The notes beneath the pieces are model-generated. The model had not been told where the DNA came from. It worked only from the letters and a program-made list of their open reading frames with translations, and ran no database searches. A stretch of 8,389 nt of DNA from a virus: the UHGV virus genome UHGV-1378212, one strand, 5' to 3'. Shown in pieces: positions 1-8,389 of the stretch. The translations under genes and the position numbers were made by a program. Within the stretch, counting starts at the first letter, position 1. Every line of letters starts with the position of its first letter.

Positions 1-55
1 GGACGGATTACCATCAATGTACAAATGTGTCGCTTTACCTTCGCCATTAGATCCT
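1..55. repeat. Terminal direct repeat, copy 1 (identical to 8288-8342): assembly overlap of a circular genome
   Basis: 55-nt string ggacggattaccatcaatgtacaaatgtgtcgctttaccttcgccattagatcct occurs at 1-55 and again at 8288-8342; sequence diverges only where adapter begins. Confidence 0.9.
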
Positions 56-213
56 ATCGATCGTACTTTCATCGTTGCTTCATGCGAGCCGCGAACAGTC
101 AGTCGCTTAACGGTTTCCCACTCAATTGCACCGTCAGCATCAACGCTGACAACACTCCCCGCCGGAAGCGGTTTGTGTGTGCAAGGGAAAATCCCGGTAA
201 GCCAATCGATCAC
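1..213 (-). CDS. II: Replication initiation (nicking) protein gene II, N-terminal segment; joins 7448-8342 across the circular junction (about 350 aa total). Likely GTG start at 211-213
   Basis: Hand translation of minus strand from 213 downward gives (M)IDWLTGIFPCTHKPLPAGSVVSVDADGAIEWETVKRLTVRGSHEATMKVRSIGSNGEGKATHLYIDGN..., continuous with the 287-aa ORF at 7448-8311; starts MID like recalled M13 pII; SD-like GAGGA 7 nt upstream of GTG; in-frame stop at 262-264 bounds the ORF; alternative GTG at 253-255 lacks an SD. Confidence 0.75.
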   Translation of the reverse strand, partial: MIDWLTGIFPCTHKPLPAGSVVSVDADGAIEWETVKRLTVRGSHEATMKVRSIGSNGEGKATHLYIDGNPS

Positions 214-382
214 GAATAAATCCTCAAAATTGCAAAAATGACGACTTACTAACACATGAGTTCAGTAGTTCATTAGTGTTTTAACATTACATCAGTGAGC
301 TAGTGAGTTCAAGAGGCTTGGATGATATGAGTTCATGAGCATGTATACTCACTTCAAATATTGCATTGAACGAGCGTAAAAA
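214..382. promoter_or_regulatory. Divergent control region between gene II (minus) and the plus-strand cassette; contains iterated ATGAGTTCA/GTGAGTTCA motifs; candidate operator and/or plus-strand origin
   Basis: TGAGTTCA at 257-264, 304-311, 328-335 (9-mer ATGAGTTCA exact at 256-264 and 327-335); tandem AGTGAG at 294-299 and 302-307; TATACT -10-like hexamer at 344-349; divergent gene starts at 213 (minus) and 383 (plus). Confidence 0.45.
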
Positions 383-565
383 ATGGCAAAGCGCACGACT
401 TATAACGTGACGGAAGAAAGAAAAATGAAACTAGAACGACTGGCTATAAATGCCAGTGTAAAACTAGGAAAAACAATTACATGGACAGAGATTTTAGGTT
501 ATCTGATTGATAACTACTCTAAAGATGCAGCAGAAGATCTCATGTCTGCCAAACAAAAGGATTAA
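383..565 (+). CDS. Small DNA-binding protein, ribbon-helix-helix (CopG/Arc-like) candidate; possible repressor
   Basis: 60-aa ORF MAKRTTYNVTEERKMKLERLAINASVKLGKTITWTEILGYLIDNY...; N-terminal basic beta-strand (KRTTYNV) followed by two predicted helices with G-x-T at helix-2 start fits RHH pattern; no clear SD (possible leaderless or weak RBS); first gene of a terminated plus-strand operon. Confidence 0.45.
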   Translation: MAKRTTYNVTEERKMKLERLAINASVKLGKTITWTEILGYLIDNYSKDAAEDLMSAKQKD

Positions 566-610
566 GTACCACGAATGGTACAAACGTGCAGTATTACCAA
601 CACTGCACGT
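566..610 (+). promoter_or_regulatory. Two adjacent perfect stem-loops immediately after the RHH gene stop
   Basis: Hairpin 1: GTACCA-cgaa-TGGTAC at 566-581; hairpin 2: ACGTGCAGT-attaccaac-ACTGCACGT at 584-610, followed by T-rich tctagtttgt. Confidence 0.5.
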
Positions 611-680
611 TCTAGTTTGTGCAAAACTTAAACAAAAAGTAAGTCATCGAGATAAACAAAACGAGTCAAAGTATATACTG

Positions 681-821
681 ATGAATACGCCAAAAAAAAG
701 TGAACAAAAACAGAATGATAAGCAACAAGGCTTTGCCCAAGATGGTTTGGACACATCTAAAGCAAAAAGGCTTTTAGAAAAAGCTCAACAATCCACTACT
801 AAACCAACACAAGGAAAGTAA
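681..821 (+). CDS. Hypothetical small hydrophilic protein (46 aa), Lys/Gln-rich; C-terminal motif shared with the next ORF
   Basis: ATG at 681 is the first plausible start after the RHH stop within the 507-821 ORF; stop TAA 819-821 sits 1 nt before the next ATG (823); C-terminal GLDTSKAKRLLEKAQQS resembles GLNTSKASSLLAKIQSQS of the next ORF; no SD seen. Confidence 0.35.
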   Translation: MNTPKKSEQKQNDKQQGFAQDGLDTSKAKRLLEKAQQSTTKPTQGK

Positions 822-822
822 T

Positions 823-1098
823 ATGTTATCTTTTCAGGTTTTCCTTTTTAAAAAAGCATTAGAGGAAGAATTAGATATAATCAAATGGCATCCAACAAAT
901 GAACAATTGGAGGAGATGTTCAATGAGATAAAAAAACTCAGTGGCAATGAAAGCATCACTGAAGTTGAAAATATCGTTCATCGAATTTACAAAAAACCGA
1001 TTACAAGAATGATTTGTAATGGATTGAATACATCGAAAGCAAGTTCGCTATTGGCAAAAATTCAATCCCAGTCAAATAACACTCAACAAAAAAGATAG
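823..1098 (+). CDS. Hypothetical protein (91 aa)
   Basis: ORF MLSFQVFLFKKALEEELDIIKWHPTNEQLEEMFNEIKK...; SD-like AGGAAAG 6 nt upstream of ATG; stop TAG 1096-1098 overlaps the next start (GTG 1098); C-terminal motif paralogous to previous ORF. Confidence 0.55.
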   Translation: MLSFQVFLFKKALEEELDIIKWHPTNEQLEEMFNEIKKLSGNESITEVENIVHRIYKKPITRMICNGLNTSKASSLLAKIQSQSNNTQQKR

Positions 1099-1802
1099 TG
1101 AAATCAGATATGGATGTTCACGGTATCATTGATAATCAAAAAAAAGAAATTGAGCGTTTATATGAAAAATATACTGAGTCATTAGAGTGTTACCTATCTG
1201 GTAAATGTGATTTTGATACCGTGAATTCATGTGGAGACAGTTTTTTCGGCTATTTAGAACACTGCGCTGCACATAACAGAACAGTAGATGAATTAAATAA
1301 TACTCAATGGAATCAATGGCTTGCAGAAACATGCATTGATGTTCTTCACCTTATCTTAGCTCATTACAAAAAATATAGAGAGGTAATGAATGATAATAGT
1401 ATTAAACCAAGCTCCACTGCTTTTGCTTCAATGCAAAGGATAGTAAAAGCCCATGACAAACGTTCTGCAAAAGAAATAAGGAATCTTTTCGTTAATGAAG
1501 ATATGCCAGTATATGGATTTGACAATAAAGGAAAAGAAAAATTGACAAAAGCACACGAGAGAATAGCGGCATTTAGCTTTGGCATTTTACTTGTTATTCT
1601 TTTTATAATAATCGCAATATTTATACCTAATCCAACGAACTTTCAATACACTTTCTTTCGAATAATTCTTTCAGCAGCAGTTGCTGGGGTAGTCTCATTT
1701 ATACCCGGGTTTATAGAAGTCAAAATATCAAACTGGGTAAGAGCAGGTGGAGCATTAGCTGTATTTGTGATTGTCTATTACGTGGCTCCCGCAGCATTAT
1801 GA
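1098..1802 (+). CDS. Hypothetical membrane protein: Cys-rich soluble N-terminal domain (~165 aa) plus three predicted C-terminal transmembrane helices; candidate effector/exclusion protein
   Basis: 234-aa ORF (GTG 1098, alternative ATG 1110); hydrophobic stretches AAFSFGILLVILFIIIAIFIP, FFRIILSAAVAGVVSFIPGFI, AGGALAVFVIVYYVAPAAL at the C-terminus; five Cys in the N-terminal domain; followed by an intrinsic terminator. Confidence 0.6.
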   Translation: MKSDMDVHGIIDNQKKEIERLYEKYTESLECYLSGKCDFDTVNSCGDSFFGYLEHCAAHNRTVDELNNTQWNQWLAETCIDVLHLILAHYKKYREVMNDNSIKPSSTAFASMQRIVKAHDKRSAKEIRNLFVNEDMPVYGFDNKGKEKLTKAHERIAAFSFGILLVILFIIIAIFIPNPTNFQYTFFRIILSAAVAGVVSFIPGFIEVKISNWVRAGGALAVFVIVYYVAPAAL

Positions 1803-1832
1803 ATTGGTTCGCACAATGACGTTATGCTAAAG

Positions 1833-1870
1833 AGGCCGCTGCGGGATTCTATTTTCGCAGCGGCCTTTTC
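1833..1870 (+). terminator. Rho-independent terminator of the plus-strand cassette (possibly bidirectional, between convergent genes)
   Basis: Perfect 11-bp stem AGGCCGCTGCG (1833-1843) / CGCAGCGGCCT (1856-1866), 12-nt loop, followed by TTTT (1867-1870); lies between orf234 stop (1802) and the convergent minus-strand orf77 stop (1938). Confidence 0.75.
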
Positions 1871-1937
1871 AACATAACGAGTCGTACATTATGCGCACCA
1901 ATGGTAAGGATGGTGGGAACTGGCGTTACCGGTGCCG

Positions 1938-2171
1938 TCATTGGTCACAGACCGTAATCCACTGGCCCAGGACGTCTTTCAGGCAATGTTGGCATAAATC
2001 CAGTTTTAAGCGATTACTGTCACCAAAAATTGAACCGTATCCAGCTAAGTGATTAACAGACAGAAACTCATTGAACTCAATGTCATCTACCACCGTCTTC
2101 GCATGGCGACCACAGCGATCGCAGGTCTTCGCACATAACATTACAGTATCGCTGGATGTGAAAAATTGCAT
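1938..2171 (-). CDS. Hypothetical zinc-ribbon protein (77 aa) with two CxxC pairs
   Basis: ORF MQFFTSSDTVMLCAKTCDRCGRHAKTVVDDIEFNEFLSVNHLAGYGSIFGDSNRLKLDLCQHCLKDVLGQWITVCDQ; CDRC and CQHC separated by ~41 residues; strong SD GAGGAG 5 nt upstream of ATG (minus strand). Confidence 0.65.
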   Translation of the reverse strand: MQFFTSSDTVMLCAKTCDRCGRHAKTVVDDIEFNEFLSVNHLAGYGSIFGDSNRLKLDLCQHCLKDVLGQWITVCDQ

Positions 2172-2244
2172 TTTATCTCCTCGTAATGCTGCCGCGCCGA
2201 ATCAGCAATAACGCTAAAAAAACAGAATTGTTCGGCTTGGCCAA

Positions 2245-2285
2245 CCCCGGACACTAACAAAAGCAAGTTTTGTCACTGTCCGGGG
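2245..2285 (-). other. Stem-loop between orf102 and orf77 (possible terminator/attenuator or single-strand origin hairpin)
   Basis: CCCCGGACA (2245-2253) pairs with TGTCCGGGG (2277-2285); inner ACAAAA/TTTTGT pairing in the loop; a run of seven T on the phage strand lies ~30 nt downstream. Confidence 0.45.
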
Positions 2286-2288
2286 TTA

Positions 2289-2597
2289 TCATATAAACCA
2301 ATAGACCGTCCTTACGCCATTCTGGTTATCAATAACATAGCCGCATTGTTTCCTTAAAAATTCTTCTGCTAAATCAATGGCTTTTAAAGAAATCTCATAA
2401 GAAGGAAGTAAAGTGTATCCTTTCCCTTCACTGGCAGCTGCTTTGATCGCATCCAGAGTATTATCAATCAGTAACAGAGCAAGTGATGCTTCATTTACCT
2501 GAGCCGAAGAACTTCTGGCTGCAAGTGTCATTGTTTTTGCTTCTTCCGCTGTAATCGTTCGTTCTGCCAGAGCAGATAAAATCCCATAAGAATCCAT
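2289..2597 (-). CDS. Hypothetical protein (102 aa), phage-sense cargo gene
   Basis: ORF MDSYGILSALAERTITAEEAKTMTLAARSSSAQVNEASLALLLIDNTLDAIKAAASEGKGYTLLPSYEISLKAIDLAEEFLRKQCGYVIDNQNGVRTVYWFI; SD-like GGGGT 6 nt upstream of ATG; no family recognised. Confidence 0.55.
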   Translation of the reverse strand: MDSYGILSALAERTITAEEAKTMTLAARSSSAQVNEASLALLLIDNTLDAIKAAASEGKGYTLLPSYEISLKAIDLAEEFLRKQCGYVIDNQNGVRTVYWFI

Positions 2598-2617
2598 TAG
2601 TTACCCCAATCAATAAT

Positions 2618-2677
2618 GTCCATTTGATGGATAGCGAGCAGGGCTCACGCACCTACCCGCTATCCATCAAAGTGGAC
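2618..2677 (-). terminator. Long imperfect hairpin at the 3' end of gene IV: candidate gene IV terminator and/or packaging-signal hairpin
   Basis: GTCCATTTGATGGATAGCG (2618-2636) pairs with CGCTATCCATCAAAGTGGAC (2658-2677) with one bulged base, ~21-nt loop; overlaps the gene IV stop (2667-2669); in Ff phages the packaging signal is a long hairpin directly after gene IV. Confidence 0.5.
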
Positions 2678-3932
2678 GAATGATATGTGCTGTAAGCAAA
2701 ATATACATAATACGCTGTTCATTGCTGTCTGCCTTGCTACTGAAAATCCAGCCTATAAGAGGAATTTTACTTATAACTGGAACTGAACGCTCAGCATTGC
2801 TAAACGATGAATCGATAAGCCCCCCCAATAACAACGTCTGACCATCCTTAATCTGGACTGTCGTCTGAATCTGGCGCTGATTAGTAATAATATCGGATGC
2901 CTGATCATCATTGCTGATTGAATCAGCGCGAGTGTCGATAGTCAGAACTAGTTGCCCGTTACCCATGACAACAGGCGTTACCTTGAGAGAAACGCCAACA
3001 TCATGACGCTCGATAGTCTGAAACGGATTATTTACCCCGGCAGATTCGCCCGTTACCTTTCCGGTGATAAACGGCACATTCTTACCTACGGAAATGTAAC
3101 CAGTCTGACCAGACTGAGTAAGAATACGCGGCGTTGAAATCACCTTAGAGCGTGAATTACTCTGGACAGCACGCAGAGACAGCGCCAACACGTTACCATC
3201 AAAAATACCAAAAGAACCGCCCGCCGTAGAAAGAGCGCTACCCAGTGCAGAAGTATTAAAGCCCCCCGCAACCTTATGACCGGATGCAGAACCTGCCGCA
3301 AACGATAAATCAACGCCATCAGACAAGCTGGTTTCAAACATCAGCGACTGAATGAGAACCTGATCGCGGGCAACATCCACAGAATTGATAAAATCGGACA
3401 GAACCGGCAGCAGCTCGTCAGGCGCAGAAACAATCAGCGAGTTATTGCCTGGATAATCCACGACATTACCACCACCATTAGAATCAAGATAAATTTTAAT
3501 CAGTTGCTGAACATCGGACGATCTAACTTTTGTCAGCTTAAAATTTCTGACCGTAAGCGCCACAGGTACTGGCTGGTAAGATGGCTCAGAAGGAAAAGTA
3601 TCATAAGACTGGTTATCAGAATCATCGGAATCCGAAACCATCTGTGAAGGTAATTTAGACGGCAAAGAGACTACCGCAGGATTGCCAGAAAGCATGACAA
3701 AACCGTTAGCATTCAGAACAGACTTAAAGAAATCATCAATATTTGTTGGATTAACATCAGCATTAAATACGGTTACGTTTCCTTTAATATCAGGATTAAC
3801 AATAACAGGCTTGCCAGTTTTTGAAGAATACCACTGAACAAATGAGCGAACAGATGAATTGTTTAAATTAACAGTTTCAGCAGAAACGCAGAATGAACAG
3901 GCAAATAAAAAAGCAACAATAACAGAGCGCAT
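2667..3932 (-). CDS. IV: Gene IV secretin (phage export channel, pIV)
   Basis: From internal ATG at 3930-3932: MRSVIVAFLFACSFCVSAETVNLNNSSVRSFVQWYSSKTGKPVIVNPDIKGNVTVF... resembles recalled M13 pIV N-terminus (signal peptide then VIEMNNSPLRDFVTWYSKQSGESVIVSPDVKGTVTVY); AGGAG upstream; the 452-aa track ORF is an upstream in-frame extension that overlaps gene I. Confidence 0.9.
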   Translation of the reverse strand: MRSVIVAFLFACSFCVSAETVNLNNSSVRSFVQWYSSKTGKPVIVNPDIKGNVTVFNADVNPTNIDDFFKSVLNANGFVMLSGNPAVVSLPSKLPSQMVSDSDDSDNQSYDTFPSEPSYQPVPVALTVRNFKLTKVRSSDVQQLIKIYLDSNGGGNVVDYPGNNSLIVSAPDELLPVLSDFINSVDVARDQVLIQSLMFETSLSDGVDLSFAAGSASGHKVAGGFNTSALGSALSTAGGSFGIFDGNVLALSLRAVQSNSRSKVISTPRILTQSGQTGYISVGKNVPFITGKVTGESAGVNNPFQTIERHDVGVSLKVTPVVMGNGQLVLTIDTRADSISNDDQASDIITNQRQIQTTVQIKDGQTLLLGGLIDSSFSNAERSVPVISKIPLIGWIFSSKADSNEQRIMYILLTAHIIRPL

Positions 3933-5376: not shown

Positions 5377-6626
5377 CACTCACCCCCTTTGCGAAGCAAT
5401 GAAGTTAAAGAAGTAAAGACATACCAGAACGTAAGGCAATAAAAAACCCATGAAAGAACATCTTTAATAGTCAGTAATTTATCGCAACCAATATCAATCT
5501 GATAAACCTCTCCGGGAAAAATAATAAAATCAGAGCAGCCGTTACCATTGGGTAAATTAGGCAGCATAGCACCTTTATTTAAAAATGCTTCCCATAAAGC
5601 ACCGTGAGAATCCTTTTCAATTCCCAATTCAGAATCAGCCAAAGTAGAAGCGCCATCTAATTCAGAGTCGCCCTTTCCATAACGAGAATCACCACCTGAA
5701 GGGTCAGCAAAACGGCCAGCCCCCCGCGTAAGATTGTTAATGGAATCGTCAAGACGATTTATATTATTCCTAGTTTGTTCATCGGCATTTTTTTTATCAT
5801 CTGATGAAGTGTCTTTCTCCGTTAATTTATCATGAATATCGCTGGCTATTTTGGGTGAAGCACCTTCGATAGCAGACTGAATATCACCTTTAGAAAGACT
5901 GGAACCACTAAAGCCACCGCCAGAACTACCGCCACCGGACTCACCACCGCCAGAACTACCGCCACCGGACTCACCACCGCCAGACTCACCACCGCCAGAC
6001 TCACCACCACCATTTTGGGGGGTTGAGGGTTTATCAGAGGGGTCAGCTACAGTACCTGTAGGCTTCCATGTTGCAGCGCAAACAGTACCATCACCCTGAC
6101 AAACAATGACACCAGTAGCCTCATATTCACAGCCGTTATAGTAGATATAACGACCACCATCATATGAATCAACATTATTAAATACACCTTCTTCTGGCGG
6201 CTTCGCTTCACAAATTTCTTCTGGTGTCGGGTCAGTAGGTTTTTCATCAGGAACAGAACGCTGAATATCACCAACAATATAAGCCGTTAAAGACCAATAT
6301 TTATCCTTCTGCCCTGGTGAATCGCTGTAAGTACAATCACCAGTAAAAACAAGACGGAATTCAGAATCAGGCCAGATACCCTCATAAGTTGGTTTAACCT
6401 GAGTAAATACACTCTGAGCACTGGATTTAGCACCCTGACAAGCGGAGGCCTGCATAGCAGCATCAATATAGTAAACCGTTGACTTAGAGCCATCCTGATT
6501 GGTTATTTGCTTACTTTCAGCGTAGGCAGAGCTTTGATAAGTGGATTTAGTAATGCTTTCCCATGACTCAGCATGTGAAAAAGGAGAAATGAGGACAGCG
6601 GAAAGAATTAATATTTTCCTTTTCAT
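5376..6626 (-). CDS. III: Gene III adsorption / minor coat protein (pIII) with signal peptide, Gly-rich linkers and C-terminal anchor
   Basis: From internal ATG at 6624-6626: [19 protein letters not shown]|ESWES... signal peptide; Cys-rich N-domains; linker [33 protein letters not shown]; hydrophobic C-terminal anchor; position after gene VIII terminator; the 464-aa track ORF is an upstream extension overlapping gene VIII. Confidence 0.9.
5914..6011. repeat. Tandem direct repeats (2 x 30 nt, then 2 x 15 nt) encoding the Gly/Ser/Glu linker of pIII
   Basis: ccaccgccagaactaccgccaccggactca at 5914-5943 and 5944-5973; ccaccgccagactca at 5974-5988 and 5989-6003. Confidence 0.9.
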
Positions 6627-6934: not shown

Positions 6935-7030
6935 TTACATTAATCGGTCAGAAAATGATTTAAATGAACCGACCGCATAGAAAAGGGCAAAACCAAAGGT
7001 ATAAGCCCCGAAGAAATAAACGATATACAT
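6935..7030 (-). CDS. IX: Gene IX minor coat protein (pIX), 31 aa
   Basis: MYIVYFFGAYTFGFALFYAVGSFKSFSDRLM, a small hydrophobic protein between gene VII and gene VIII as in Ff; its ATG overlaps the gene VII stop (TAATG); the 74-aa track ORF is an upstream extension. Confidence 0.65.
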   Translation of the reverse strand: MYIVYFFGAYTFGFALFYAVGSFKSFSDRLM

Positions 7031-7447: not shown

Positions 7448-7762
7448 TTAATGCCAGCTACTGGCGTGCGAAATACGGTTGTAATCGAAAATAAAACCTT
7501 TCTCATAAATCCATAAGGGGATTTCCACTGGCTTGGCTTCCAGCGTTCTTATTAGCGGAACAACGTTATTAGAGTCTGGTGAATCACAATAGAAATTAAT
7601 ATCGATACCGAACGAAAGCAATTCTCTTCTATGGCGATAAAAAGTGTTATGAGGTAACATTTCTTTCATGTTAGCCCCTTGTTTCCAAAGTAAATAAGTT
7701 GACTGTATTTTTCTTGGCAGTTTCGTTATTTTTTCATCACTTAAAATAGCATTCTGATTCAT
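7448..7762 (-). CDS. X: Gene X (pX), in-frame internal start within gene II
   Basis: Internal ATG at 7760-7762 begins MNQNAILSDEKITKLPRK..., comparable to M13 pX start MNIYDDSAVLDAIQSK and in the equivalent position in the C-terminal third of pII. Confidence 0.55.
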   Translation of the reverse strand: MNQNAILSDEKITKLPRKIQSTYLLWKQGANMKEMLPHNTFYRHRRELLSFGIDINFYCDSPDSNNVVPLIRTLEAKPVEIPLWIYEKGFIFDYNRISHASSWH

Positions 7763-8342
7763 TTCTATTCTCCCTACATATTCAGAGAATAATTGACGTG
7801 GTGTTTTCATATTCCAGTTAGCGCCAAGCGTTAAATTTAAATCAATAAGCTCAGTTGTTCTTAATGTTAATTCAATACGTAATTTATCTTTCGTCCAGTC
7901 CAGTAACCCGGCTCGTACAAAATCTTCGGCTATCTGGTGCCCTTTTTTACCCGAAACGTGTTCATCATATTTTGAATAAAATTTCAGACTCCATCGACGG
8001 GAGTTTTTACCTAAATAAACTGTACCGCCTTTCCCACATGCGCGACCATGGCGTGTTTTAGCTTTAAATTCGGCGGCATAAAGCCATGATCTGACATTTT
8101 CTAGCGTAGATAATGAATACATGTAATTAATGTCAACACGTGAAATTTTATACTGACCTGCTATAACAGCTTTATAAGACGCTAAATCATGAGGAATATT
8201 CAATAAGGATAAAATCCTGGCATAGACCGTCAACATGAGCCCTTGTATATCATCCGACCCAACAACAGAATGCCCCTGCAAAAACTTGGACGGATTACCA
8301 TCAATGTACAAATGTGTCGCTTTACCTTCGCCATTAGATCCT
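7448..8342 (-). CDS. II: Gene II replication initiation protein, C-terminal segment (continues at 56-213 via circular junction)
   Basis: 287-aa track ORF plus upstream in-frame codons to 8342; C-terminus ...NNVVPLIRTLEAKPVEIPLWIYEKGFIFDYNRIS matches recalled M13 pII C-terminus (NNVVPLVRFINVDFSSQRPDWY); the track start at 8311 is a TTG, not the real start. Confidence 0.9.
8288..8342. repeat. Terminal direct repeat, copy 2 (identical to 1-55)
   Basis: Exact 55-nt match to window start. Confidence 0.9.
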
Positions 8343-8389
8343 GTCTCTTATACACATCTCCGAGCCCACGAGACGTAGAGGAATCTCGT
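8341..8389. other. Sequencing-library adapter read-through (Tn5 mosaic end plus Nextera adapter with an index-like 8-mer), not biological sequence
   Basis: CTGTCTCTTATACACATCT (Tn5 mosaic end) followed by CCGAGCCCACGAGAC, 8 nt GTAGAGGA, then ATCTCGT (start of ATCTCGTATGCCGTCTTCTGCTTG); begins exactly where the terminal repeat stops matching. Confidence 0.9.

Follow-up and report, generated by a model that had tools for sequence, protein, structure and literature searches.

The interval between genes II and IV

The stretch of DNA analysed here, called the window throughout, comprises 8,389 nucleotides of the virus genome UHGV-1378212, a circularly assembled inovirus whose phage genes lie on the minus strand, and our subject is the 2453-bp interval (214-2666) that runs from the start of gene II to the stop of gene IV. 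Six open reading frames (ORFs) occupy it in two opposed groups, orf60, orf46, orf91 and orf234 on the plus strand, antisense to the phage genes, and orf77 and orf102 on the minus strand; the same six are called by RefSeq in identical E. coli prophages, and all of them match PHROG families (E = 1e-25 to 1e-144). The order in which the elements follow one another, namely regulator, origin, cargo, phage attachment site (attP), two small ORFs and packaging signal, was found in all 38 of the relatives drawn from IMG/VR, which were compared together with annotated E. coli prophages. In every relative that allowed the measurement, attP has 1.3-2.4 kb on its cargo side and 0.5-0.9 kb on its gene IV side, and everything between the 5' end of gene II and the 3' end of gene IV is replaceable except for short conserved DNA elements. 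The same layout is standard in the dif-integrating inoviruses Ypfφ/CUS-1 and CTXφ (PMC4266046). We consider it likely that 214-2666 serves a temperate UPΦ-type inovirus, one that integrates at dif, as its region for integration, regulation and accessory genes, and that it consists of conserved DNA sites with slots for ORFs between them.

The phage belongs to the UPΦ viruses (Shapiro & Putonti 2020, Virus Evol 6:veaa030) and is essentially the same object as the one published. Complete E. coli chromosomes, 11-12 of them, contain the whole interval at 100% identity, and among published UPΦ carriers the comparison was made with strain ECONIH2 (CP014667), to which positions 214-1901 are 100% identical; ECONIH2 is named as the carrier of a UPΦ tandem triple and was used as a case study (PMC7307601). 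Between gene IV and dif the window has orf102 and orf77, which are h1 and h2, the signature genes of UPΦ, and their products (WP_000378923 and WP_001159442) are identical in E. coli dif prophages. The dif locus of strain 85.0412, flanked by a fimbrial operon and hipBA, harbours the phage as a tandem repeat, and a sibling that shares orf60, orf77 and orf102 is present in its replicative form as a Salmonella "plasmid" of 7938 bp. A search of INPHARED for near-identity over the whole phage returned no close phage record, the sole match being about 190 bp of gene IV (IKe, PEar), and a literature search with the RefSeq protein accessions of the region found no paper.

Much of what lies at the locus has been described before. 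The UPΦ paper reported the dif site and tandem integration, a pair of new genes, h1 and h2, at the place where I2-2, IKe and M13 are intergenic, and three reverse-oriented ORFs beside dif, of which h3 occurs in 221 of 229 prophages, h4 and h5 in only 56-57; prophages that lack h4 and h5 have other ORFs in those positions (PMC7307601). In the present terms h1 is orf102, h2 is orf77, h3 is orf60, h4 is orf91 and h5 is orf234, whereas orf46 was not counted. The layout and location of the region were thus already published for UPΦ901 in 2020, and there is nothing new in the feature as it was first stated; the novelty that remains is the uncharacterised orf91/orf234 system and the shuffling mechanism proposed below.

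An initial annotation of the window had taken the interval for an Ff-type intergenic region expanded to about 2.4 kb by six cargo ORFs, in two modules of opposite orientation and different base composition. Its coordinates, the 8287-bp unit length and the two opposed ORF groups are all confirmed, and the region is indeed far longer than its counterpart in Ff, in IKe (6883-bp genome) or in I2-2 (6744-bp genome, 817-bp intergenic region). The expansion itself did not hold up, given that the dif-inovirus layout is found in 38 of 38 relatives: an Ff-type intergenic region is non-coding and contains only the packaging signal and two origins, whereas this interval contains six conserved ORFs and a Xer site, and its packaging-signal homologue and origin-like core, although both present, are about 2 kb apart. 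No mention had been made of the packaging hairpin, the attP or the origin-like element, each of which lies inside the interval. As to composition, the claim was half right. The plus-strand cassette (383-1802) is AT-rich, its GC content of 34.2% being below that of every core window of the same size (minimum 37.3%, mean 40.6%), but the region 1938-2597, at 42.6%, falls inside the range of the core, of whose windows 25% are equally or more GC-rich, and only the GC content at third codon positions (GC3) of orf77 is unusual (0.47 versus 0.26-0.38 in core genes). Across the antisense cassette the packaged strand keeps its T-richness, with 41% A at sense-strand third positions against 47% T in the core genes, which suggests a long residence in single-stranded DNA phages.

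An exchangeable slot between conserved DNA sites

In siblings whose gene II is at least 98% identical, similarity to the window stops at 622-666 and restarts at 1798-1804. These breakpoints therefore delimit a hypervariable slot of about 635-1800, which is exactly orf46-orf91-orf234. The genes that fill the slot in siblings, all antisense to the phage genes, encode Fic/Doc, DUF7014 and a protein with a REase_DpnII-MboI domain, several transmembrane proteins, a 384-residue TIR protein of the CAP12/Pycsar type, and zinc proteins of the ECs_2282 type and the "mobilome CxxCx11CxxC" type; in a Salmonella sibling it is a Fic/Doc "death-on-curing" gene that takes the place of orf46-orf91-orf234. UPΦ genes I-IV are present in 56 of 5426 complete E. 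coli genomes, and in 22 of these 56 they are accompanied by orf46, orf91 and orf234, always at 99% identity or more. The same cassette is also found on different backbones. Strain F11 has a mixed array at dif (NZ_CP076123, 1650770-1676883) in which CUS/Ypf-type and UPΦ copies carry an identical cassette, while one further UPΦ copy has different cargo; all copies share the origin core, and in the CUS-type copies the same cargo is paired with a helix-turn-helix regulator of the XRE type. The same gene order recurs in a Pectobacterium inovirus whose gene II is unrelated and of the Ff type; there the ribbon-helix-helix gene is 57% identical and the 46-, 91- and 232-residue proteins are 80%, 66% and 53% identical to those of the window, and a forked attP of the phage's own follows.

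The left border of the variable slot is an origin-like element (566-634, minus strand) made up of a core hairpin at 583-611 and a second hairpin at 566-581, with a folding z-score of -5.4. On the virion strand the core reads AACGTGCAGT-GTTGGTAAT-ACTGCACGTT; its consensus of about 27-30 nucleotides, AACGTGCAGTGT(T/A)(G/T)GTAATACTGCACGTT, occurs exactly once per phage copy in 34 loci, and 16 aligned relatives show no variation in the core, nor does I2-2, which matches at 91% over 34 nucleotides. The second hairpin shows compensatory changes (GTACCA/TGGTAC versus GTCTCA/TGAGAC). Because the core co-varies with an I2-2-type gene II and lies upstream of that gene, 583-611 is a candidate for the plus-strand origin at which the I2-2-type gene II protein would act.

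At the other end of the slot lies attP (1803-1902, minus strand), a forked hairpin of about 100 nucleotides on the virion strand that contains two inverted dif-like sites, site 1 at 1899..1867 on the minus strand (GGTGCGCATAA TGTACGACTCG TTATGTTGAAA) and site 2 at 1806-1832 on the plus strand (GGTTCGCACAATGACGTTATGCTAAAG). Only one copy of GGTGCGCATAA, which is dif's XerC arm, is present in the window, at 1889-1899 on the minus strand. Two inverted repeats (1803-1818/1887-1902 and 1820-1843/1856-1879) give a predicted fold with a free energy of -31.2 kcal/mol (z = -8.1) in which the XerC arms pair, the centre bulges, the XerD-like arms pair and the apex is GC-rich, and the same forked design recurs with a different sequence in two diverged relatives as well as in the Pectobacterium inovirus. 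Read on the plus strand, the GC stem-loop at 1834-1865 and the TTTT run that follows it resemble a terminator for the antisense cargo operon; the idea that the hairpin at 1834-1870 is a mere bidirectional terminator was nevertheless rejected, as it is the apex of the conserved attP hairpin.

The integration junctions can be read directly from lysogens. In a tandem lysogen two phage copies are accompanied by three sites 8287 bp apart. At the orf77-side junction, phage sequence passes into GGTGCGCATAATGTATATTATGTTAAAT, a perfect 28-bp dif, after which the chromosome begins; the middle site has the attP sequence of the window; and at the hipA-side junction the chromosome, GGTGCGCATAATGTA and the phage sequence cgactcgttatgttgaaaagg form a hybrid with the degenerate arm of the phage. 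Twenty further relatives have the same types of junction. The segment common to the junctions, GGTGCGCATAATGTA, places the crossover on the XerC side of the central region, with dif regenerated at one end only.

Parts of attP are also found away from phages. A half attP that is 90-95% identical to window positions 1805-1876 recurs on some 430 conjugative plasmids, which are IncF for the most part and have E. coli, Klebsiella and Salmonella as hosts. It retains site 2 and the GC stem-loop together with a piece of the XerD arm and begins right after the stop codon of a cargo-like gene such as one for an STM4504/CBY_0614-family protein. We do not favour the explanation that these are plasmid dimer-resolution sites, since they have neither the XerC arm of site 1 nor the origin core; they may be remnants of inovirus traffic or of Xer-mediated cargo traffic.

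To the left of the origin-like element, the region between the divergent genes II (minus) and orf60 (plus), 214-382, looks like an operator and promoter. It contains three direct TGAGTTCA repeats (257-264, 304-311 and 328-335), which are three of the four occurrences in the window, where 0.30 would be expected and four were reached in 0 of 200 shuffles. A sigma-70-like promoter for orf60 at 322-349 is overlapped by the repeats, and the whole of 214-382 is kept at 99-100% in all siblings that have orf60. The fourth exact copy of TGAGTTCA lies far from the promoter region, at 2072-2079 on the minus strand, inside orf77.

The product of orf60 (383-565, plus strand) is a 60-residue ribbon-helix-helix DNA-binding protein, according to an AlphaFold2 model (predicted local distance difference score 94.8) with an N-terminal strand and two helices, for which the structural matches are almost exclusively ribbon-helix-helix proteins; it has 65 cluster-level relatives, all of about 60-90 residues. 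It is 98-100% identical in siblings whose downstream cargo differs. In relatives with about 85% gene II identity, which appear to be of the Ypfφ/CUS type, an XRE-type helix-turn-helix protein stands in its place, at the position that corresponds to RstR in CTXφ (PMC4266046). The filamentous phage I2-2 (NC_001332, 2666-2918) has the same origin-like core together with an antisense orf60 homologue that is split by a frameshift (ORFs 2784-2918 and 2720-2860), either an old sequencing error or a pseudogene; one relative has an intact version of the I2-2-like form. Because it lies outside the slot, stays constant while the cargo changes, has a ribbon-helix-helix fold and is preceded by operator-like repeats, orf60 is best read as a backbone gene, a candidate repressor or copy-number regulator, and not as cargo, with the TGAGTTCA repeats as its candidate binding sites.

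On the gene IV side of attP, orf77 (1938-2171, minus strand) encodes 77 residues with two CxxC pairs, which make it zinc-ribbon-like, and has a weak Pfam match to zf-FPG_IleRS (E = 0.004); its homologues fall into only 14 protein clusters, all from Enterobacteriaceae or metagenomes. The lineage-specific orf102 (2289-2597, minus strand; 102 residues) has homologues in only 10 protein clusters, from E. coli, Salmonella and Citrobacter, and family searches with it returned only a PHROG of unknown function. Other lineages have unrelated small ORFs in these positions, and the two are lineage-fixed accessory genes. Between them is a hairpin (2243-2287, minus strand) with a 20-bp stem (-18.7 kcal/mol, z = -8.0) that is 80-100% conserved in relatives with different flanking ORFs and could be a minus-strand origin or a terminator. 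The packaging-signal-like hairpin (2618-2677, minus strand; -24.5 kcal/mol, z = -9.8) overlaps the stop of gene IV, and window positions 2768-2629 align with I2-2 2172-2310 at 70.7% identity, an alignment that takes in the annotated "morphogenetic signal" of I2-2 (2260-2330). Rfam and tRNA scans gave no matches.

Taken with the slot borders, these observations divide the six ORFs that the initial annotation had called cargo: orf46, orf91 and orf234 (about 635-1800) are exchangeable, but orf60 is a conserved backbone regulator and orf102 and orf77 are fixed in all UPΦ. Close relatives do possess a region of the same kind, identical in the 11-12 chromosomes mentioned above and of similar length elsewhere, but the genes in the slot differ.

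The core genes outside the interval are II, V, VII, VIII, III, VI, I and IV. Gene II (213..1 joined to 8287..7448, minus strand) has a GTG start at 213, spans the circle junction and encodes 351 residues; gene IV (2667-3932, minus strand) has its stop codon at 2667-2669. A 31-residue ORF (MYIVYFFGAYTFGFALFYAVGSFKSFSDRLM; 7030..6935, minus strand) that overlaps the gene VII stop resembles gene IX and is unannotated in the RefSeq prophage copies. Gene III contains, at 5914-6012, a tandem array of period 15/30 that codes for a Gly-rich linker of the GGGES type in the attachment protein, and linker copy number in gene III has been reported as the main variation between strains of UPΦ (PMC7307601). 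With respect to the contig itself, the repeat unit is 8287 bp, positions 1-55 are identical to 8288-8342 (a 55-nucleotide terminal overlap) and 8343-8389 are a Nextera transposase adapter (CTGTCTCTTATACACATCTCCGAGCCCACGAGAC) with the index GTAGAGGA; adapter and overlap are artefacts that arose when a circular molecule, or a tandem repeat that collapsed, was assembled.

The orf46-orf91-orf234 cassette

The three slot genes encode two small proteins and a membrane protein. The largest, orf234 (1098-1802, plus strand; RefSeq places the start at the ATG at 1110, giving 230 residues), has an N-terminal helical cytoplasmic domain, which is confidently modelled, and a C-terminal module of three transmembrane helices, and we regard it as a candidate membrane effector. 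Directly upstream, orf91 (823-1098, plus strand) encodes its small helical partner. The 46-residue cargo protein of orf46 (681-821, plus strand) has the C-terminal motif GLDTSKAxxLLxK and is 46% identical to orf91 over 24 residues (E = 8e-4); the shared C-terminal motif makes it an orf91 paralogue. That orf46 might be a truncated remnant of orf91, cut by the slot border, was considered and rejected, because the Pectobacterium protein is likewise of 46 residues, 80% identical and under purifying selection. Against the Pectobacterium copies, the proportions of nonsynonymous and synonymous differences (pN/pS) are 0.10/0.57 for orf46, 0.22/0.75 for orf91 and 0.28/0.71 for orf234.

Members of the orf234 family occur in 24 species, in Proteobacteria and others, and nearly all have one to three tandem orf91-like genes upstream; homologues of orf91 itself lie directly upstream of orf234-family genes in Proteus, in Aeromonas (two copies) and in Pectobacterium. 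The chromosomal loci of the family are accompanied neither by inovirus genes nor by an orf60 homologue. Their immediate neighbours include Gabija in Pseudomonas (GajA at 8e-205, and also GajB), Olokun in Paraburkholderia (OloB at 3e-146, and also OloA), Hachiman in P. sediminis (HamB, E = 0) and the candidate system PDC-S73 in Proteus (5e-258); elsewhere the neighbours are phage integrases. The three-helix module (FxFG...PNPSxFQY...PGFIEV...RAGGALAVF) is also found at the N-terminus, in the middle or at the C-terminus of other proteins (P0037, P0038, P0048, P0053 and P0054). Proteins that bear it are fused to ankyrin, to DUF4019 or to unknown soluble domains, and no Pfam family covers it.

Pfam, NCBIfam and PADLOC returned nothing significant for the six ORFs, and the best cargo match in PADLOC-DB v2.0 was to Csx27 at a non-significant E = 0.0057 (15 bits), with none for orf46 or orf91, so that hits to defence models came solely from genes beside the chromosomal homologues; no Pfam matches were obtained with 27 orf234 homologues, and no toxin or antitoxin domains were detected in the small proteins and the membrane protein of the cassette. 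Judged by association, the cassette is most plausibly a membrane-acting module for superinfection exclusion, abortive defence or addiction that would be expressed in the lysogen.

A working model and its relation to known systems

How the parts might work together can be sketched as follows. The packaged strand would fold 1803-1902 into the forked hairpin and so mimic dif, a single-stranded substrate that we propose behind the observed junctions. Host XerC would then swap one strand pair within GGTGCGCATAATGTA, so that dif would be intact on the orf77 side and the cargo side would be left with a dead hybrid. With an intact dif regenerated, further phages can therefore stack in tandem and arrays can become mixed. 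In the lysogen orf60 would bind the TGAGTTCA repeats and control the divergent promoters of gene II and of orf60 itself, and orf46, orf91 and orf234 would probably be co-transcribed with it, probably terminating at the GC hairpin. The gene II protein would nick the core at 583-611, as predicted in the GTTGGTAAT loop, and, by analogy with CTXφ, rolling-circle synthesis in an array would run from one origin to the origin of the next copy. It is tempting to propose that the segment from attP to the origin in the progeny therefore comes from the neighbouring prophage, which would explain why the slot is bounded exactly by origin and attP and why CUS-type and UPΦ backbones carry the same cassette. 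In its widest form, which we offer only tentatively and regard as possible but rather doubtful, the proposal would be that orf46-orf91-orf234 is an undescribed, widespread anti-phage or exclusion system of proteobacterial defence islands, made up of one to three tandem small helical paralogues and a protein with the conserved but unclassified three-helix membrane module, that has been captured by at least three inovirus backbones, that the slot between origin and attP is reshuffled by origin-to-origin rolling-circle replication in mixed dif arrays, and that the half attPs of plasmids are traces of this traffic.

Several points count against our reading of the region or of its cargo. The observed junctions fit recombination of a double-stranded, VGJφ-type attP equally as well as the folded single-strand route, although in its duplex form site 1 would have 11 nucleotides between its arms, which argues against a duplex site. 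The nick site and the origin function of 583-611 are deduced from conservation, and neither gene II nor, on its own, the cargo showed a strong promoter in a simple scan. The ribbon-helix-helix gene could travel with the cargo, because the four-gene order that includes it recurs in Pectobacterium. The defence role is suggested by association, through neighbouring defence genes and the content of the slot in siblings, and most of the cargo genes of siblings have no annotation.

Two other explanations concern how the region is to be divided. One holds, close to the initial annotation, that foreign genes entered the short, non-coding intergenic region of an Ff/IKe-like phage in two or more independent insertions, the phage-sense pair and the antisense cassette, and so enlarged it. 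The interval of 2453 bp against 817 bp in I2-2 would agree with this, as would a GC content in the antisense cassette below that of any core window, content that differs between siblings, and an orf91/orf234 family that resides mostly outside inoviruses and was therefore captured at some point. However, not only the 38 relatives but also the Ypfφ/CUS lineage share the layout, and with orf60 and the origin core both in I2-2 it is I2-2 that looks like a reduced derivative, as the authors of the UPΦ study argue (PMC7307601). The composition of the orf102/orf77 stretch lies within the core range, the T-richness of the packaged strand through the cassette suggests long residence, and an interval that has attP, origin and packaging signal inside it is not an intergenic region with inserts. 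We therefore think the insertion account unlikely. The other explanation, that orf60-orf46-orf91-orf234 is one self-contained toxin-antitoxin or defence operon in which orf60 is a ribbon-helix-helix antitoxin or autoregulator and the whole unit is cargo, draws on the Pectobacterium inovirus, where the same genes stand in the same order beside an unrelated replication protein, and on the Salmonella sibling with its Fic/Doc toxin after orf60. Yet orf60 hardly changes (98-100% identity) while at least six unrelated gene sets replace the genes downstream of it, and a conserved origin-like element separates it from orf46; moreover, the I2-2 lineage has a ribbon-helix-helix gene without cargo (protein P0138 included), the chromosomal orf91/orf234 systems have no orf60 homologue, and the CUS-type copies of strain F11 combine the same cargo with an XRE-type regulator. 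A single four-gene operon seems to us quite unlikely.

As to what the cargo does, it might together with h1 and h2 supply host-directed fitness or virulence factors for extraintestinal E. coli, in the manner of ctxAB in CTXφ or puvA in CUS-1. Prophages of the UPΦ901 clade are enriched in isolates that are urinary or associated with urinary tract infection (PMC7307601), Ypfφ and CUS-1 modestly raise fitness in vivo (PMC4266046), and the listed carrier hosts are mostly human clinical strains. We find this improbable, however, as domain scans detected no signal peptides, secretion signals or toxin domains in the six proteins, homologues of the cargo lie beside defence systems in soil and water Pseudomonas, Paraburkholderia and Methylobacter, and the cargo of siblings includes TIR, Fic/Doc and restriction-like domains.

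The reading that we prefer, of an integration, regulation and accessory region with conserved sites and slots, adds to the UPΦ paper, which gave no gene functions, attP structure, origin or slot boundaries (PMC7307601). For the DNA sites that organise the region it points to a folded attP, a core of the origin that I2-2 also has, and the packaging hairpin. It assigns h3 to the backbone as a ribbon-helix-helix regulator, sets the exact limits of the cargo slot, for which it proposes a reason based on replication, and places h4 and h5 in a conserved multi-gene family beside Gabija, Olokun, Hachiman and PDC-S73; these additions could make open questions of that paper testable. If the family does serve defence or exclusion, the small filamentous dif prophages of uropathogenic E. 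coli would be carriers of exchangeable immunity genes, a role that has also been proposed for Vibrio inoviruses (PMC11630473).

Among described phages, UPΦ has core genes like those of I2-2 and IKe, its gene II being of the I2-2 type (56% identical), and its genes II and V are about 85-93% identical to those of the Ypfφ type. I2-2 itself (Lineavirus I22) shares the origin-like core, the packaging hairpin and an antisense orf60-like ORF upstream of gene II, but it is non-integrating and has neither a dif-like site nor cargo nor h1/h2 in its 817-bp intergenic region. Ypfφ of Yersinia pestis and CUS-1 of E. coli K1 are alike in more respects, as they integrate in tandem at dif with an intact dif regenerated at one end, have a predicted pair of inverted XerC/D sites and a regulator divergent from the replication gene, and carry two variable ORFs beside attL and two ORFs of unknown function beside attR (PMC4266046). 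The relatives that we take to be of this type have a gene II that is 85% and a gene V that is 93% identical and share the origin core and the attP hairpin; they differ in a gene IV of only about 27% identity, in giving no match for genes I, III, VI and VIII, in their XRE-type, RstR-like regulator and in their attR-side ORFs.

CTXφ of Vibrio cholerae offers the closest parallel in design, with two inverted dif-like sites in a forked hairpin of the packaged strand, a crossover on the XerC side, tandem arrays, a repressor divergent from the replication gene and accessory genes at the prophage ends, although its proteins are not homologous and its cargo, ctxAB, is at the other end of the prophage. 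The single-stranded substrate and the origin-to-origin hybrids have been shown for CTXφ, whereas here they are proposed; a folded attP of the CTXφ design has also been proposed for Ypfφ (PMC4266046). With regard to exchangeable cargo, the nearest likeness is to the filamentous prophages of Vibrionaceae, dif-integrated inoviruses with one variable locus beside a transcriptional regulator (ISME J 2024, PMC11630473). That hotspot holds up to six genes, mostly unannotated and enriched in defence and toxin-antitoxin functions, and its exchange has been proposed to proceed by recombination in identical flanks (PMC11630473). The slot described here belongs to another host clade and to other phage lineages, its flanks are the candidate origin and attP, and the shuffling that we propose for it is based on replication.

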